Source of the DNA: a virus | Taxonomy: Duplodnaviria; Caudoviricetes | DNA: 41,057 nucleotides | Virus record (IMG/VR): IMGVR_UViG_3300023076_000006 | Location: 1-41,057 of that record | Direction: 5' to 3' (one strand) | Part shown: positions 17,958 through 25,040 of the stretch, one piece after another | How the letters are laid out: each line of letters opens with the position of its first letter | Position numbering within the stretch: the first letter of the stretch is position 1 | Position numbers and translations under genes: made by a program | The notes under the pieces: generated by a model | Told to the model about the DNA's origin: nothing | The model's database searches: none | Seen by the model: only the letters and a program-made list of their open reading frames with translations

Positions 17958-18135
17958 TAGTTATATTTCCCTCAACTTTTTCCTGATGCTCCTCGATGAT
18001 CCTTTTAACTCGCTCAAATCTTTTACCATCCTGCTTTTTTTTATGTGCCGCGCAGATCTTTTCCTTTCCGGTAACCGGGTAATCTTCATACACTCTCTTC
18101 GCTATCTCAAAAACCTTTTCAGCTTTCATCACCAC
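17947..18135 (-). CDS. Small hypothetical protein
   Basis: 62 aa, fills the gap between portal and gpF. Confidence 0.55.
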   Translation of the reverse strand: MVMKAEKVFEIAKRVYEDYPVTGKEKICAAHKKKQDGKRFERVKRIIEEHQEKVEGNITNEP

Positions 18136-19528
18136 CCTGCTTTAAAGTATTATCAACCTCATTAGCCTGGTAATCTTCGAAGGACTCGCCCATAGTTGTA
18201 GTTATACGCGGCTGATCATAATATGCGTTGTCTATCTTTTCCAGCTGCAATAATTCAAGCACCCGGTTAATAGGCAATCCGCGATCCATAAGCGGGGTCA
18301 GCCAGGTAACCATATCCTTCATATCTTCCTGAAGTTCGGTGTATACGCTCATATCGAAGTCAATAACACACCTTTTATCCAAACCCCAATGGGTGGTTGC
18401 ATGACGGGTAAGGGTATCGCGTTTCCTCGTGAGCCGCGGGAGACACGCGCGCATGGTAAGGGATTTCTCTGCCTCTTCAAAATTATTATATGCCTTCTGG
18501 TCATCATTTAATAGTTGAGATGGTACCCCGAATGGGTTACACAGCATGCGAAGCGTCCACTTCTGCGATTCTATAACCTGCATCTCTTCGCTACTTAGTC
18601 CGATATCCTGCCACCCGATCTCGTACCCGCTAAGTCCTATACGCCCCCTGTTGGCAACGCCCGTCCATTCCGGTCCGGTAACCTGTTCTTTTAACGTTCC
18701 AACCTCCTGCAGCAGGAGTTCACTGTCCACAACACCCGGCGTTCCTTTAAGGAATAGCACGCCTTTTACCCCCTCGTTTTCGAAAGCCGCTGTTTGTGCG
18801 TCCAGTGATTTATTACCATTCTGTATCCGCATGAGTGAAGCCCGCAGCGGCGGTATCCCATACATCTGTGCACCATTAACGCGCCAGTCAGGATTAAATG
18901 TGCGCTCATGCATAGTTTCCTCCGTTGTGAAAAATACCGAAGGCCACATACTAACCCCATACTTAATTATTTTGGTCGGGAATGTATCGGTGGTATAAAT
19001 ATCAACATACTGCGCTGGCAGCATATTTAACTCCTGCGGCAACCCGCGGTTAGCACCCGCATTAAGCATGTTTGCCACCGTATAGTTATTCCCAAACAAA
19101 CACTCCCTCTCTATTCCGTTTGCCACAAAATCATTAAATGTCTCGTATTGGTTTGGATACTTGATGAGTTCCCCCCATTTACCTGGATTTGTTGAAGGCC
19201 GCAAGGCTTTGCGCTGGAAGGTAGCAGCGCAGGCGAAATCTTTTGCTGTCCAGTGGCTTTTTCGCTGCATACCACGCAGGTTTTTATACGCCGTTTCATC
19301 CACCACTTCATAAACGCCCCACGGTGCCACCCGGCATTTGTCAGCAATCAGTTTAATGATCGAGAACACCATGTCATTGATGTTATACCCTTTTGTCAGG
19401 AAGCTCTCCGGGTTGTCTTTATAGGCGACGAGGCGGCCGTTTATTAACTGGTAAAGAGGCGCATTCCTTGCCGGTAGCGCGAAGTCTTTATTTTGGCTGC
19501 TTGGTGTCAGCAGGCTTTGCCTCGGCAT
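18119..19528 (-). CDS. Portal protein (HK97 family)
   Basis: PNQYET..F, LFGNNY, YGIPPL, LCNPFGVPSQLLN, YNNFEEA. Confidence 0.92.
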   Translation of the reverse strand: MPRQSLLTPSSQNKDFALPARNAPLYQLINGRLVAYKDNPESFLTKGYNINDMVFSIIKLIADKCRVAPWGVYEVVDETAYKNLRGMQRKSHWTAKDFACAATFQRKALRPSTNPGKWGELIKYPNQYETFNDFVANGIERECLFGNNYTVANMLNAGANRGLPQELNMLPAQYVDIYTTDTFPTKIIKYGVSMWPSVFFTTEETMHERTFNPDWRVNGAQMYGIPPLRASLMRIQNGNKSLDAQTAAFENEGVKGVLFLKGTPGVVDSELLLQEVGTLKEQVTGPEWTGVANRGRIGLSGYEIGWQDIGLSSEEMQVIESQKWTLRMLCNPFGVPSQLLNDDQKAYNNFEEAEKSLTMRACLPRLTRKRDTLTRHATTHWGLDKRCVIDFDMSVYTELQEDMKDMVTWLTPLMDRGLPINRVLELLQLEKIDNAYYDQPRITTTMGESFEDYQANEVDNTLKQGGDES

Positions 19529-19793: not shown

Positions 19794-20020
19794 ATTTCTG
19801 CGTTTTGAAACGGTTGTGAGGGAATTGTATATCGTGGGATGCATACGATTTTTCCGCACTCAACGTGGCACCCGGCCCGTTAACAGGAAAAATCGTAAAG
19901 GACGTTTTGGCTTCCTTTTCATCAATTATTATAACTCTTCATTATGTTACTTGGGTTAGCCGTGGGTGGCGGCTGGTGCATACCGAAGGCCGGGCAAACC
20001 GCGTGGGCAAAACTGTATTC

Positions 20021-20053
20021 AAAGAAAAAAGAAGGAGAACGCCCGTAAGGGCG
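20021..20053 (-). terminator. Probable terminator after ORF 20078..20290
   Basis: cgccc-ttac-gggcg hairpin followed by a pyrimidine/U-rich tract. Confidence 0.5.
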
Positions 20054-20077
20054 GGGATCACCGCGAACTAAATACCC

Positions 20078-20290
20078 TCATTTGCCCCGCATCTGTTTCA
20101 GACGCTTTCTTCTGGCGGCACGCAGCTTCCGGATTATCTCTTCTAAAAATATCTCCGCATTTGTATAGTCCGGAACATTCCTTTCGTCTATTTCTTCCAG
20201 GATCAGCGCCAAGACCTTTTTACCTAACTCGGTCATCTTGCCCGGGTTTCCGGCAATACTCATTTCGTTATGTACCTGCTTCCATGTCAT
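20078..20290 (-). CDS. Hypothetical protein, basic C-terminus; start likely ATG 20290
   Basis: 70-aa helical ORF divergent from the RNA-switch cassette. Confidence 0.6.
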   Translation of the reverse strand: MTWKQVHNEMSIAGNPGKMTELGKKVLALILEEIDERNVPDYTNAEIFLEEIIRKLRAARRKRLKQMRGK

Positions 20291-20408
20291 AAGTAATGTT
20301 TTGCCGCAATATAGTCCTCCGGAACGGGCAATAATTACGGTTACCCCCGTATTTACCCTGTACAATATGTAAAGAGGGTTTGTTATCTTTAGCCAGATCA
20401 TATAGCAA

Positions 20409-20543
20409 TACTCGCCAGTACACGGCGCCTAAATAAAAGGCGGCAACCATTCAACCTCTGTTTATGGGTCTGGCGACCCGCTATGTGGCAGACATTTGAT
20501 TAAAGTTGCCGCTTATTTTTAACACATAAAATCGCCAGACATG
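20409..20543 (+). ncRNA. Structured cis-regulatory RNA, copy 1 (kissing-loop/pseudoknot, C4/CI- or repZ-like)
   Basis: tac-TCGCCA-gta hairpin; 10-bp outer stem 20438-47/20505-14 plus U tract; inner gggtc-TGGC-gaccc; target cacata..tcgccagac directly before ATG 20541. Confidence 0.7.
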
Positions 20544-20591
20544 AACAAGAAACCTCCCGGATAAACAATACTGTATCCATCAGAAACTCCA

Positions 20592-20754
20592 TGCTAAATC
20601 GCCAGTTTAAGTAAAGAACTCCCAAAGTTTATTTGATCGGGTACGCCATAAGGCGTAACTGTGTCTTTTGCTTTGGGTAGGCTCTGGCGAGCCTTGTATG
20701 GGCTAAGATTAACGGTTACGCCAATTTTTTAACATACAAAATCGCCAGATCATG
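20592..20754 (+). ncRNA. Structured cis-regulatory RNA, copy 2
   Basis: taaa-TCGCCAG-ttta hairpin; outer stem 20652-62/20712-22 plus U tract; inner aggctc-TGGC-gagcct; target catacaa..tcgccaga before ATG 20752. Confidence 0.7.
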
Positions 20755-21003
20755 AATTTATCTTACGGAGAATGGCTGCTGTTTTCAATAGCAGGCGTTC
20801 TTATAATGTTTGTTATCCTGTACTACGTTATAAAATCAGCTATACGAGATGCTCTCAAAAAAGATACTTCTGACTACTCAAAACCAACGCAAAGGGTAAG
20901 GTCATCAGAAGCAAATTCAGAAAAACAAAGGGACTTACAACAACGGTATGAACGCGGAGAAATAACGCTGGAGCAATACCAAAAAGAGTGGGGGAATAGT
21001 TAA
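20752..21003 (+). CDS. Membrane-anchored SHOCT-domain protein
   Basis: N-terminal TM helix; C-terminal LQQRYERGEITLEQYQ matches the SHOCT consensus. Confidence 0.8.
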   Translation: MNLSYGEWLLFSIAGVLIMFVILYYVIKSAIRDALKKDTSDYSKPTQRVRSSEANSEKQRDLQQRYERGEITLEQYQKEWGNS

Positions 21004-21009
21004 ATTTAA

Positions 21010-21047
21010 AGTCCCGGAAGCCGACTAAAACTTTCCGGGACTATTTT
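21010..21047 (+). terminator. Terminator/attenuator hairpin between the two rightward moron genes
   Basis: agtcccggaa / ttccgggact 10-bp stem followed by atttt, 3 nt before ATG 21051. Confidence 0.6.
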
Positions 21048-21050
21048 ACC

Positions 21051-21251
21051 ATGCAGGATAAAATCATAAACATGGCGCACTTTTATGCCAGTGTAGTAAG
21101 GATTGAAATACTGTTAGAAGAAATTTTACGGGCGAGTTTATCAGCTGCCCATTCAGATGATAGCGTTCGACTTCAAAAGCAAATGCAAGCCTTTAAGGAT
21201 ATTTCCGCTGAAGTAACAAGACGTTTAGAAGGTCTTCCGAACGCAGTCTAA
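21051..21251 (+). CDS. Small helical hypothetical protein
   Basis: 66-aa ORF followed by a structured U-rich end at 21272-21318. Confidence 0.55.
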   Translation: MQDKIINMAHFYASVVRIEILLEEILRASLSAAHSDDSVRLQKQMQAFKDISAEVTRRLEGLPNAV

Positions 21252-21474
21252 ATCTAACGTCTAACACAGTTAGTCCGCGAACTACACCGCGCTTCGCGAC
21301 AGAAGCCGGGCTTTTTTTCTTTGTATTACAGTTTTTCGCGCCCATTTAACATAATATTTAGTTATAATTGATTGATGCTAAAATAATTATCCAAAACGTC
21401 CTATGAAAGCCGGTCTGCCTTGTGCGGGTTGTTGGAAGCCCGTGTGTCTGTGCGGTGGCCTGTTCCGGTCCCGG

Positions 21475-22869
21475 CTACGCCCTGTTACTGGTGGCTGTCA
21501 ACACAAATTTAGGCTTTAATTCAAACCATGCCCGCATCAGTATTGCATCAAGGAAGTCAGGCGACCTGCCTAACTTCTCCTTCATCTTATCCTTTGGCAC
21601 GATAGCCCGCTTGCCATCACTATCCATGTTCTTTTGCTTCAGCTGCGCCAGCTCCTGCATGATAAGATCCTGCATCCAGTCCTCACATTCCAAATATAAA
21701 CCTTTCTCGTTAATAATTTCAGCGATCCGGAAAGCGCATTGTGACTTCAGGTTATCAAAGTTTTCTTTAACCGGTTTACCGTCTGCCCCTATTGGCTTTT
21801 TAGGATCTGCCAGGGGCGATGATCCATTAACAAATCCTTTAAAACCGCCGAAGTCCTCTACACCGGATCCCATGCCATCAGAGTCTACCAGCACATCAGA
21901 TTTTCCGCATGTATTACGCATGCGCGCTGCTTCTATTGCTGTTGTTGATACAGTCAGTTTTGCGCGGTCGAAAGCGATTACACGGCCCCTGAACCCCTGC
22001 CATTCGATTATAACGATACGGTCCCCTCCCATACGCGCTATGTCTGCAGTGACACAACGCCTTCCGGCTGGCACGTGCGTATTGCTGAACATATCAGATA
22101 TTGCTTCGGCAGATATAAGGCACGCCGGGTCATTTTCATACTCAAAATTACCATCAATGAGACGTTCGATCATTTGCTGGTCCCCTGATGCACGTATAGC
22201 CTGTATCCATCCGGCTACATCTGGTGACGGGTTATCAGTGGGTAATGATTTTATGAATTTATGGGATGGCGGTAGTTCTTTTTTCTTCCACGGAAGATAA
22301 TAGCGCGTAAAGATGTGCGTCATCGACGGGTTGAACCCCTCCAGTATCTTCGCCATAATGCCGTATTCCGCATTCTTTCGCCTGTTGATCCGCGAGGCCA
22401 GGGCGACAATAGCCTGTTTATTCACCTCTCCCGATTCATCCACAACGCCGCCGGTAAATTCGTAGCCGCCTAACCACTGGTAAAGCGGGTCGCTTGGGGC
22501 AAACTGAAGATCGAGCAGGAATATCTCTGATTCGTTGTAGAATCTTATAATAGCTGATTTTTCATGGTACTTGTAATGCAGTCCTTCAGTAATGCCGTAT
22601 AATTTAAACACCTTCCAGAGGGTCAGAAGCGTTGTGTCTTTCAGTACGGTTAGGGTTTCACGGCCAAGAAACCAGCCGGTTCCCGGATAAGCAAAAGACA
22701 TTATTGTAAGATAATGGCATTCGAGCCACGACTTCCCGGAGTTGCCGCTGCCGCCGTAGCCTATGAATGTGGTTTCGTTATCAGTCAGGGCGTCCCATGC
22801 TTCTGCCTGTTTTTCACTTGGCACAAAATCGATAGTGATATCAGGTATTTTTTTCGTAGGGACTGGCAT
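21475..22869 (-). CDS. terL: Terminase large subunit
   Basis: Walker A GGSGNSGKS, Walker B VVDESGE, motif III GFNP, RNase H acidic motifs TADIARMGGD, VDSDG, SPDFLDA. Confidence 0.93.
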   Translation of the reverse strand: MPVPTKKIPDITIDFVPSEKQAEAWDALTDNETTFIGYGGSGNSGKSWLECHYLTIMSFAYPGTGWFLGRETLTVLKDTTLLTLWKVFKLYGITEGLHYKYHEKSAIIRFYNESEIFLLDLQFAPSDPLYQWLGGYEFTGGVVDESGEVNKQAIVALASRINRRKNAEYGIMAKILEGFNPSMTHIFTRYYLPWKKKELPPSHKFIKSLPTDNPSPDVAGWIQAIRASGDQQMIERLIDGNFEYENDPACLISAEAISDMFSNTHVPAGRRCVTADIARMGGDRIVIIEWQGFRGRVIAFDRAKLTVSTTAIEAARMRNTCGKSDVLVDSDGMGSGVEDFGGFKGFVNGSSPLADPKKPIGADGKPVKENFDNLKSQCAFRIAEIINEKGLYLECEDWMQDLIMQELAQLKQKNMDSDGKRAIVPKDKMKEKLGRSPDFLDAILMRAWFELKPKFVLTATSNRA

Positions 22870-23485
22870 CGGGGTACATAGTTTCTAGCGGTATGTTAAG
22901 CGAAGTCTGATCGCTCGTAGAGAAAAACGGAAGGTTTGGGATAACGGAGCCGCGACGGATTTTACAGTCGGGCATGTGCTCGCCAACAGGATGTATACCA
23001 TTAGCATAAACAGACTTATTGAGATACTCTCTCGCCTGCCAGTTGCATTTTCCATGAAGATTACAATAGGTGTGTTTGTTTATAACCATAGGTGTATGGC
23101 AGTCATACATCAAGCCTTCAGGATATAGCTGTATGGTATTGCTGATACGTTGCGGGTATTGCCCGGCAGCGCGAGCCCGTGCAGAAGAAAGCGAACCTGA
23201 ATAGTAAAAAGGCATGTTCGCGTCAAAATCTTTTAAGGCAAATACGTCATCGCTGGATAATAAAAACACCCCTGCAGGTGCCAACATCACTTTGCTTACA
23301 ATACTCCATTCCTTTCGTCCTGTCATGTCCATGGCAGGTATATGGTCGCCTGTAAACCATTCTGGCCGGTCTCCTATTACACATACACCGGTAAGGTCTT
23401 TAAAGTGCTTGACCATACTGCGTATAGAGTAACGAAGTTCCCGGCCGTTGTGCGGGCAGTGGCGGTATGGATAGACTAGTATCAT
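22841..23485 (-). CDS. Stealth-like (hexose-1-phosphate transferase / GT-A-like) protein; start likely ATG 23485
   Basis: ELRYSIRS (Stealth CR2-like) and FLLSSDDVF (cf. FxxxNDD); HTP motif. Confidence 0.6.
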   Translation of the reverse strand: MILVYPYRHCPHNGRELRYSIRSMVKHFKDLTGVCVIGDRPEWFTGDHIPAMDMTGRKEWSIVSKVMLAPAGVFLLSSDDVFALKDFDANMPFYYSGSLSSARARAAGQYPQRISNTIQLYPEGLMYDCHTPMVINKHTYCNLHGKCNWQAREYLNKSVYANGIHPVGEHMPDCKIRRGSVIPNLPFFSTSDQTSLNIPLETMYPDASPYEKNT

Positions 23486-23613
23486 GAAAAGGCATAGATA
23501 AGTCCCGAAATAAGAATACACAGCGCTATAATATCTGTTATTATCAGGCCGTTCCTAAGTCTCTTTCTTCTCTTTAATCTTTCCTCTGAAATATTTGGAT
23601 CATATTCAAACAT
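23482..23613 (-). CDS. 43-aa membrane peptide (not in ORF track)
   Basis: MFEYDPNISEERLKRRKRLRNGLIITDIIALCILISGLIYAFS; ATGA-coupled to the downstream gene. Confidence 0.6.
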   Translation of the reverse strand: MFEYDPNISEERLKRRKRLRNGLIITDIIALCILISGLIYAFS

Positions 23614-23616
23614 ACT

Positions 23617-24294
23617 TTACAAATTTACAATAATTTCCCGCGGCATCAAAAGGGAACTGCACGTATGCCCGGGCGCCTGCACTAATCTGTATTCTCGGCC
23701 AAGCCCCATAGCGATAGTGGACATGGATGAATAACAGCCGGTGAACATTACGGCTTGTTTAATCATTTGGGCGGCGCGAAGGAAATCAACATCAGCAAAC
23801 ATTACCGGCCCGAAACGCTTCATGAACTCATGCCTCTCGGCAGAAGTGCCAATGATATAAACCTCCTCCGATAAACCAGTTAGGTAGTTAACCTCGGCGC
23901 TCCAATCGAAATCAGGATCTTCGTAGTTAGAGGTCCAATGAATGCAACAGTAAGGTTTCAACTGCGAAAGTTCCGGCACTGTCAGCCATCCATCACGCCA
24001 TGACGACTCCACCGGCATCCCCTGCCCCTTAAAATGCGCCTCTACCAAATTATTATGATGCCCGGCGTACTGCCTGAACTTATCCAGGTTAATCGATCCA
24101 GCCGGAGCTTCCCCTATACTCACGCCTGTAATGTATGGCTGCGCTTCAAGCAGTGGTTTAACAGCCTCCGCACGCTGCTGCATGATGTAGTTACCAGTGG
24201 TTATCACCAGATGCCCGCCACCCATAGCACGGATAGTTGGTAGAGAAAATATTATATCCCCGGTTGCGCCGGAGTGGGAAAAAACTTTACTCAT
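23617..24294 (-). CDS. Glycosyltransferase, GT9/heptosyltransferase-like (GT-B)
   Basis: HSGATGDIIFSLPTI (cf. GD..xxP of GT9), AAQMIKQAVMFTGCYSSMSTIAMGLG (cf. FIGNDSG..HLA.ALG). Confidence 0.65.
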   Translation of the reverse strand: MSKVFSHSGATGDIIFSLPTIRAMGGGHLVITTGNYIMQQRAEAVKPLLEAQPYITGVSIGEAPAGSINLDKFRQYAGHHNNLVEAHFKGQGMPVESSWRDGWLTVPELSQLKPYCCIHWTSNYEDPDFDWSAEVNYLTGLSEEVYIIGTSAERHEFMKRFGPVMFADVDFLRAAQMIKQAVMFTGCYSSMSTIAMGLGREYRLVQAPGHTCSSLLMPREIIVNL

Positions 24295-25040
24295 GGATTT
24301 ACGATATTAAAAATAACGCCCTGTTCGCACAGCCACTGCTTAACACGCTTTTTGTCATACCCTGTTGTTACATTATACGCCACTTCTTTGTTAAGCCTGA
24401 TTTTCCATGGCCTTTCGATAAGTACATCAACTAGCGGCACAGGCAGACCGAAATTAAATATATACTCCGGAAGTAGTTCAGGCCGTTTACCATATCCCTG
24501 ATCCCAAAGTCCGGTAGGCGTTACCTGTTCAATAGTCGCGCCTAACTCCTCTGCTTGCGAGGTAAGTGTAAGGTGACCGCCTTTATATTCATATTGATAG
24601 CCTTGTTCCTTGCTAACAACCGGATCGGCGGGGAATTGTATCTTACGGCTTAGTTCTTTGGTTATGCAATAAGCCGTTGTCCTTACATGCCTGACCGGTG
24701 TTAATGATATTTGAAATGCCGCCAGGTCGACGGTTGATTCAATGAAGGGTCTTAGCCATTCGGAGCTTACTGGTATAACATCATCAGTACACCAGATAAG
24801 GCGTGTCCAGTCATTAGGGAACCCTTCAAGTCTTTCGCGGAATACATCCTGTACCGATCCTATATCAAGTCCCCTGTTTTCACGTGGAATATAAATAAAC
24901 CCGGCATCGCTGCATATTTTTTTACAACTGTCCCTTTCAGAGCCGGTATGTATGACATATACAGGTAGTGTTGGTTTAGTCCGCGCCCATAATTCAATGT
25001 TGTGGATCCGGTCGTAAACTATGATAGCTAGTATCACCAT
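24291..25040 (-). CDS. Glycosyltransferase, GT-A fold (GT2/RgpF-like)
   Basis: N-terminal VILAIIVYDR, RENRGLDIG, WCTDDVIP (DxD-like). Confidence 0.6.
   Translation of the reverse strand: MVILAIIVYDRIHNIELWARTKPTLPVYVIHTGSERDSCKKICSDAGFIYIPRENRGLDIGSVQDVFRERLEGFPNDWTRLIWCTDDVIPVSSEWLRPFIESTVDLAAFQISLTPVRHVRTTAYCITKELSRKIQFPADPVVSKEQGYQYEYKGGHLTLTSQAEELGATIEQVTPTGLWDQGYGKRPELLPEYIFNFGLPVPLVDVLIERPWKIRLNKEVAYNVTTGYDKKRVKQWLCEQGVIFNIVNP

Follow-up and report, generated by a model that had tools for sequence, protein, structure and literature searches.

The C4 antisense RNA folds as a cloverleaf, IsrK is about 77 nt long, and attenuation of the pT181 and pIP501 type involves competing terminator and antiterminator helices. 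According to the available portion of PMC4825925, the CI RNA of P4 is processed from its own leader and terminates transcription through pairing with seqA upstream and seqC downstream, and IsrK of Gifsy-1, a leader RNA produced by premature termination, acts in trans on the long transcript from the same leader. CI-related RNAs are cited for P1, P7, N15 and phiR73 in the available part of PMC7567579, and the corresponding part of PMC5415839 describes antisense RNAs of pT181 and pIP501 that act on the nascent leader to induce premature termination. In the c4-a1b1 alignment, as given in the accessible part of PMC2864571, the short stem and the loop words of the second hairpin are those of the central hairpin in the RNA family described here.

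The window analysed, 41,057 nt of phage DNA, contains two copies of this RNA, and these two stretches represent a real, uncatalogued leader RNA family. As in P4 CI and P1/P7 C4, target, antisense and target words lie on one transcript: upstream pairing is found in 37/37 members, and a second copy of the target just before the ATG in 19/37, the other 18 being without it. The family also resembles P4 CI and C4 in its two-block covarying recognition (double changes at 13/14 pairs), in the predicted origin of the RNA from its own leader, and in a predicted combination of termination and start-region masking. Its short GG..CC hairpin and loop words match the second hairpin of c4-a1b1 (RF03163), the 8-nt loop word being identical to c4-a1b1 rows in 15/37 members. 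The polarity is nevertheless reversed: in C4 the hairpin word is the flanking target and its complement lies in the central RNA, whereas here the hairpin that serves as target in C4 occupies the centre as a single element, with its complement once or twice around it. Unlike C4, the antisense of this family is a long intrinsic-terminator hairpin with its own antiterminator and anti-antiterminator, and unlike C4/CI, the cargo consists of envelope genes on Bacteroidota transposons and islands rather than icd/kil-antirepressor or replication operons. When 5 genomes and the window were searched with the C4 model (RF01695) at E<=10, no member site was matched, nor did C4 appear in Rfam scans of 21 member loci; the c4-a1b1 model had none at the member sites tested, and sRNA-Xcc1 (RF02221), which is likewise a structured RNA on mobile elements, had none at member sites in 5 genomes or in the window. 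Because these models miss member sites and the positions are reversed, the family, although similar in action to C4/CI and to attenuation of the pT181 type, is not classed within C4/CI.

As in pT181 and pIP501, antisense pairing on the nascent leader is predicted to force premature termination. Their antisense RNAs are encoded in cis on the opposite strand and are fully complementary, whereas here the antisense is part of a same-strand terminator and pairs through two short blocks. A scan of the - strand over the element, made without a Bacteroidota promoter model, gave no sigma-70-like site; the antisense word on the same strand suffices. IsrK activates translation, whereas repression is predicted here, and no Rfam match connects the two. 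The preliminary description had linked the UGGCG/CGCCA words to the U-turn loops of CopA and ColIb-P9. This link is not upheld: members of the family use about a dozen codes, of which this word is only one, and the YUNR motif occurs in only 11/37 apical loops. Unlike CopA/CopT and ColIb-P9, the core word varies across the family and there is no conserved YUNR loop.

The window is an entire linear phage record, 53% complete, whose siphovirus-type head, tail and terminase genes lie on the - strand. The switch unit lies on the + strand, antisense to the late genes, between the portal (18119-19528) and terminase (21475-22869) genes. All words and hairpins of the preliminary description were found where it had placed them. 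The upstream word TCGCCA starts at 20412 in copy 1 and at 20599 in copy 2, the arms of the mini-hairpins are at 20426/20438 and 20642/20652, and the long hairpins (20438-20514 and 20652-20722) have UGGC apical loops and are followed by U tracts at 20516-20520 and 20725-20730. Bipartite complements precede ATG 20541 (7 codons) and ATG 20752 (83 aa). The claim of a bipartite downstream complement thus stands, with the correction that the upstream target is also bipartite (CATATAGC at 20399-20406 and CCATGC at 20589-20594). The small hairpin proposed to present the upstream word does not hold as a conserved fold; the homologues and copy 2 instead place the target in the loop of a long anti-antiterminator hairpin (20572-20645 in copy 2). 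A function of the minus strand was rejected, and the + strand was assigned on the basis of G-U pairs, the U tract and the direction of the cargo genes.

The Bacteroidota -7 promoter consensus is TAnnTTTG. A likely element of this type, with one mismatch, lies at 20384-20392 (+), which would place the transcription start near 20398; it fails a strict regular expression that matched upstream of 25/37 members. Copy 1 (+) comprises an upstream bipartite target at 20399-20418 (block 2 20399-20406, core 20412-20418), which is paired with 20470-20487 when the nascent prefix is folded without constraints, a mini-antiterminator predicted by folding at 20426-20442, and a terminator hairpin with U tract at 20438-20520, in which the antisense core (20469-20476) occupies the apical loop and block 2' is at 20480-20487. 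A downstream bipartite target (20523-20539; duplex -23.8 kcal/mol) covers the start region of the 7-codon leader ORF MNKKPPG (20541-20564, +). Copy 1 does not have the family's long antiterminator and anti-antiterminator, and it was scored by a covariance model of copy 2 alone (R1) and not by a model of 21 copies (R3). In copy 2 (+), the anti-antiterminator hairpin, which the MNKKPPG ORF precedes by 8 nt, contains the upstream target in its loop (block 2 20589-20594, core 20599-20605). The copy continues with an extended antiterminator assigned by folding (20621-20677), which includes the TACGCC/GGCGTA mini-hairpin that is invariant in 21/21 copies, a terminator hairpin with U tract (20652-20730; antisense core 20683-20690, block 2' 20694-20701) and a downstream bipartite target at the cargo gene start, assigned by word match and duplex (20733-20749). 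Its terminator region scored 126.9 bits with R3, in whose training set copy 2 itself is included. ORFs of 2-7 codons lie just upstream of 20/36 members compared to 7.9 expected from shuffles, with an optimistic p value because the members are related. Since such ORFs precede many members, the 7-codon ORF is more likely part of the leader of copy 2 than, as had been described, a frame led by copy 1.

Several lines of evidence show that the two copies are not chance structures. The long hairpins had z = -3.5 (copy 1) and -6.1 (copy 2) relative to 300 dinucleotide shuffles. A sequence-independent descriptor matched only the two copies in the window and matched 0/30 block-shuffled windows. R1 scored copy 1 at 38.6 bits (E 1e-7), the next best match being 12.3 bits. 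MAFFT misaligned the copies, so a model-guided alignment was used; it contains 8 double changes in 26 pairs, in an alignment fitted to that structure. When the growing RNA of either copy was folded unconstrained, the two-block upstream target paired with the UGGCGA word and the second block, which excludes the terminator.

A contig from run X4 joins 19828 to ~21444, and therefore 19829-21443 (no strand), located between the terminase and portal side in the head operon, is an accessory insert, as the gene order also indicates. Its cargo gene (20752-21003, +) encodes an 83-aa protein with a single membrane helix and a weak SHOCT C-terminus that is DUF6019-like by Pfam, atlas and homologue searches: the Pfam SHOCT match (E 0.0025) was below the cut-off, the atlas gave 0.92 to a DUF6019 cluster, and DUF6019 was found in 4/6 of those tested among 50 distant matches. 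A role of this protein in superinfection exclusion is a guess. A terminator-like hairpin 3' of the gene (21008-21048, +) was seen by eye and not reported by the feature scan. The host is likely a member of the Bacteroidota, because Chitinophagaceae are the recorded source of one relative of the cargo protein, and because a genome family with a Chitinophagaceae record among its members has the highest density of the RNA family. Searches of 58 ORFs with Pfam and of 21 ORFs with PHROGs revealed neither a repressor nor an integrase in this record, and the window contains no tRNA. The lack of a visible repressor, noted in the preliminary description, carries no weight because only 53% of the phage is represented.

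The insert also contains two orphan ORFs, 20078-20290 (-, 70 aa) and 21051-21251 (+, 66 aa), neither of which matches Pfam or PHROGs; the only homologue found for the 70-aa protein was itself. Inverted dif-like sites at 19925-19952 (+) and 21344-21371 (-) flank the insert cargo. The right site has the arm TTATGTTAAAT, as in candidate host dif sites (4/5 genomes), and a spacer one base longer than theirs. In runs X4 and X5 these dif-like sites adjoin other DNA, and the insert may therefore be a Xer-mobilised module in the phage; a dif-like pattern scan matched one phage locus, which was unrelated. At 19844-19910 a 12-bp palindrome surrounds 30 nt, and a 12-bp inverted repeat is common to this region and the right end (21391-21402). 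An X4 contig joins 21402 to 19844, which suggests a head-to-head site pair or a circle junction. In the loci L469-L474 (G101, G105, G153), repeated TATAAC-N6-TTATGTTA sites have a common spacer, and two of them lie 1.5 kb apart in direct orientation; they may represent a system of cassettes bounded by dif-like ends in the chromosomes of Bacteroidota. Upstream of the terminase, 22841-25040 (-) contains three ORFs without a Pfam match, glycosyltransferase-like by impression from the sequence.

Exact-word scans with the window's own code gave no viral or genome homologue and, in metagenomes, only the window's own contig, because the code word varies across the family; all candidates from these scans failed the structure filter. 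A covariance model of the two window copies (R2) matched 1/150 Bacteroidota genomes and then 5/150 genomes in the family of that genome, 4 of them real. A pattern of the mini-hairpin only found 24 sites in 22/401 genomes of that family compared to 1 for the reversed control, and the full architecture was present at 20/24 sites; the other four (L520, L525, L529 and L532) were rejected. R3 matched 14/150 genomes of the family, 6/150 of the phylum and 5/150 of a second family, which are lower bounds because only 18 candidates were scored per genome. In total, R3 found 40 copies beyond those of the window in 39 of the 46 loci given, the other 7 being rejected candidates. Three viral records carry the switch (L484, L559 and L561), and L559 is a second tandem, with the same core, different second blocks and a 3-codon ORF between its copies. 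Also rejected for missing architecture were 32/33 viral matches in one search, 2/4 in another (L558 and L560) and L479; the seven named rejects had no match when re-tested with R3. No copy was found by R2 on 80 phage loci with 36-46% identical terminases, a portal protein search of 201 Bacteroidota genomes gave nothing, and R3 had no match in 5 proteobacterial genomes, run with no positive control alongside. Building a model from the copies and searching Bacteroidota, as had been proposed, thus yielded homologues with covariation. In the comparison with Rfam, which had also been proposed, the window matched nothing at gathering score and the element nothing at E<=10. The leader family is undescribed in the literature searched, including the available portions of PMC11109978 and PMC5737381; the catalogues of PMC5737381 and PMC10690425, of which parts were available, could still hold it.

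One natural variant came from a separate soil metagenome study (X5), in which a 311-nt contig spans 20408-20703 with 19 other letters and 16 gaps, itemised as 14 substitutions and 12 indels. The itemised changes spare both UGGCGA words, both upstream cores and the apical stems. A G-U pair is replaced by a Watson-Crick pair in both upstream second blocks, the loop of the copy 2 mini-hairpin becomes a GNRA tetraloop, and the 7-codon ORF is still open despite three changes, 2 of them silent and 1 a replacement. The outer pair of the first downstream target is lost through one change, and another, at 20579, breaks one anti-antiterminator pair.

In Bacteroidota of soil and water, the family occurs on islands, transposons and phages, and every member has a matching pair of code words of its own. 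Within 1.5-3 kb of 35 non-window loci, a Pfam scan of long ORFs found IS1595 transposases (8 loci), other DDE transposases (2), phage integrases (2), a conjugative coupling protein (1) and primase-type island genes (3); one further member locus adjoins a tRNA. The cargo consists mostly of membrane or secreted proteins, and a crude test detected a hydrophobic N-terminus in 21/30 downstream proteins. Named cargo includes RDD, an Imm-type superinfection immunity protein, a GDSL lipase, an acyltransferase, three LuxR-type response regulators, AIPR and a helicase. In two prophage ends, at L484:2427-2760 and L561 2750-3170 (-), the switch lies between lysis genes and the integrase and is followed by an apparent RadC-like frame without a nearby ATG, as read by eye. 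In L567-L570, of which L568-L570 are second-family members, a conserved GGGACTG stands just after the U tract in place of the downstream target.

Four mutually exclusive helices are conserved in the family. The first 23 members, without copy 1 and L484, gave an alignment of 21 copies that were chosen without using the upstream target, and in RNAalifold the target pairing emerged unprompted. Upstream core and antisense core form 7 bp that are 100% paired in the 21 copies, with double changes at 6/7 pairs. The covarying second blocks of the preliminary description are confirmed by double changes at 7/7 block 2 pairs, which gives 13/14 for core and block 2. The covariation score was reached by 0/500 shuffles, and slid controls were 32-47% paired. 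The basal 10-bp stem of the terminator is 100% paired in the 21 copies; in the apical stem GG/CC is invariant and the third pair covaries. The fourth helix, the anti-antiterminator, was previously overlooked. It pairs a conserved 5' segment with the 5' arm of the antiterminator, leaving the target in the loop; it is 85% paired with 3 double-change pairs in the 21 copies and appears by eye in the prefix fold of 21/22 members. The spacers between the two blocks stay non-complementary in the alignment, which preserves the apical stem. Where a script matched the downstream core (18 members), it ends 0-4 nt from the ATG. Antisense-target duplexes averaged -24.1 kcal/mol for cognate compared to -11.7 kcal/mol for non-cognate pairs, and the best partner was the copy's own upstream target in 20/23 copies. 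This argues against the suggestion that these are small RNAs aimed at the immunity of related phages, as does the location of most members on transposons or islands before cargo. The covariation proves pairing, not action in trans.

On these grounds, we think it probable that each copy is a self-made antisense attenuator, which would read through by default and use its own terminated hairpin to silence later transcripts and the start codon. Folding and covariation show that the 5' part first folds as the anti-antiterminator with the target in its loop. The growing RNA is then predicted to refold into the antiterminator while the target pairs with the antisense word in cis, so that the terminator is blocked and the gene expressed. 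Some transcripts would terminate and be trimmed, by analogy with P4 CI, to a hairpin of ~75 nt, whose loop would expose the core while an internal loop exposes block 2'. By covering the upstream target of new transcripts, this hairpin is predicted to make the terminator nearly isoenergetic, and the induced termination would make more hairpin; where a downstream target exists, the hairpin would also block translation. The likely outcome is a burst on entering a naive cell followed by a capped, copy-number-buffered level, and differing code words would insulate co-resident elements. The gate of the P1 C4/P4 CI kind in the preliminary description, protein-free and acting by target-antisense-target attenuation and translation, is supported by the analysis.

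In fold calculations, read-through was favoured in 37/37 members; the terminated fold, calculated with an open target, was less stable by a median of 14.9 kcal/mol. Covering both target blocks lowered the median terminator penalty from 8.5 to 1.2 kcal/mol, compared to 8.3 for a neighbouring-spacer control, and raised the number of members with P(terminator)>0.5 from 1/37 to 15/37 (control 3/37). We take the trimmed central hairpin to be the probable diffusible repressor because only covering of the upstream target alters the fate of a transcript that carries both words. With the target covered, 22/37 members still remained below P 0.5, and a full equilibrium with the trans partner flipped only 6/37 to OFF; the model therefore needs kinetic control of the OFF state. 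For the window, P(terminator) was 0.44 in copy 1 and 0.02 in copy 2, the latter rising to 0.99 when the target was covered. The two copies have a common core and cross-pair at -17 to -19 compared to -22 to -24 for cognate pairs, and copy 1 may therefore feed copy 2. Truncated and near 50% termination, copy 1 likely serves as the initial gate and supplies RNA to copy 2, and it may also work via translation of the 7-codon ORF. The two-stage tandem of the preliminary description gains support from the second tandem in L559.

A timer that acts only in cis would need no diffusible RNA: folding order, polymerase speed or a ribosome on the mini-ORF would set termination, and read-through mRNAs would later refold, the antisense word closing on the start region. 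Such a timer is unlikely, although every pairing is possible in cis, the start-masking fold of copy 2 (-55.7) beats its read-through fold (-49.6), mini-ORFs are enriched upstream, and a terminated RNA that escaped processing would refold so that its antisense word became locked. It leaves the conserved apical stem that displays the core, the non-complementary spacers and about a dozen distinct codes without a reason; moreover, the downstream target is absent in 18/37 members, and both tandems combine one core with different second blocks.

The identity of the central loop word to the c4-a1b1 target word in 15/37 members could instead point to the polarity of C4 and IsrK, with a diffusing 5' target-word hairpin that would release either the terminator stem or the start codon and so create positive feedback or a bistable ON state. 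In the available portion of PMC4825925, IsrK, a terminated leader termed a SeqA homologue, does activate in trans. However, a trans activator would add little here, because the target word is already present in cis on every transcript and read-through is the predicted default in 37/37 members, and we regard this polarity as improbable. Least probable is a protein or ligand that binds the TACGCC/GGCGTARCTG core, the covarying words being merely structural. The core bases are indeed invariant in 21/21 copies, but each core strand serves two alternative helices, which explains the invariance; no gene is common to the member neighbourhoods, and the cargo is too varied for one ligand. Self-made antisense attenuation is thus the reading that we retain.

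More tentatively, and with somewhat more doubt than confidence, we propose that mobile DNA across the Bacteroidota uses the family as a portable cassette for negative feedback without a protein. The terminator would itself be the antisense regulator, the two-block code, in at least a dozen variants, would provide private channels, and tandems linked by a mini-ORF would be two-stage gates. The cassette would be a rearranged descendant of the C4/CI recognition module with the roles of target and antisense swapped. The family suggests how mobile elements of Bacteroidota may set the dose of their cargo without any repressor; this cargo consists mostly of envelope proteins and includes one Imm-type superinfection immunity protein. 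It would extend control of the C4/CI type beyond the immunity of Proteobacteria phages and suggests that the recognition hairpin can change roles. Because the code words form a natural orthogonal set, action in trans can be tested directly, and the set could be a source of RNA-only regulators in a phylum for which genetic tools are few.
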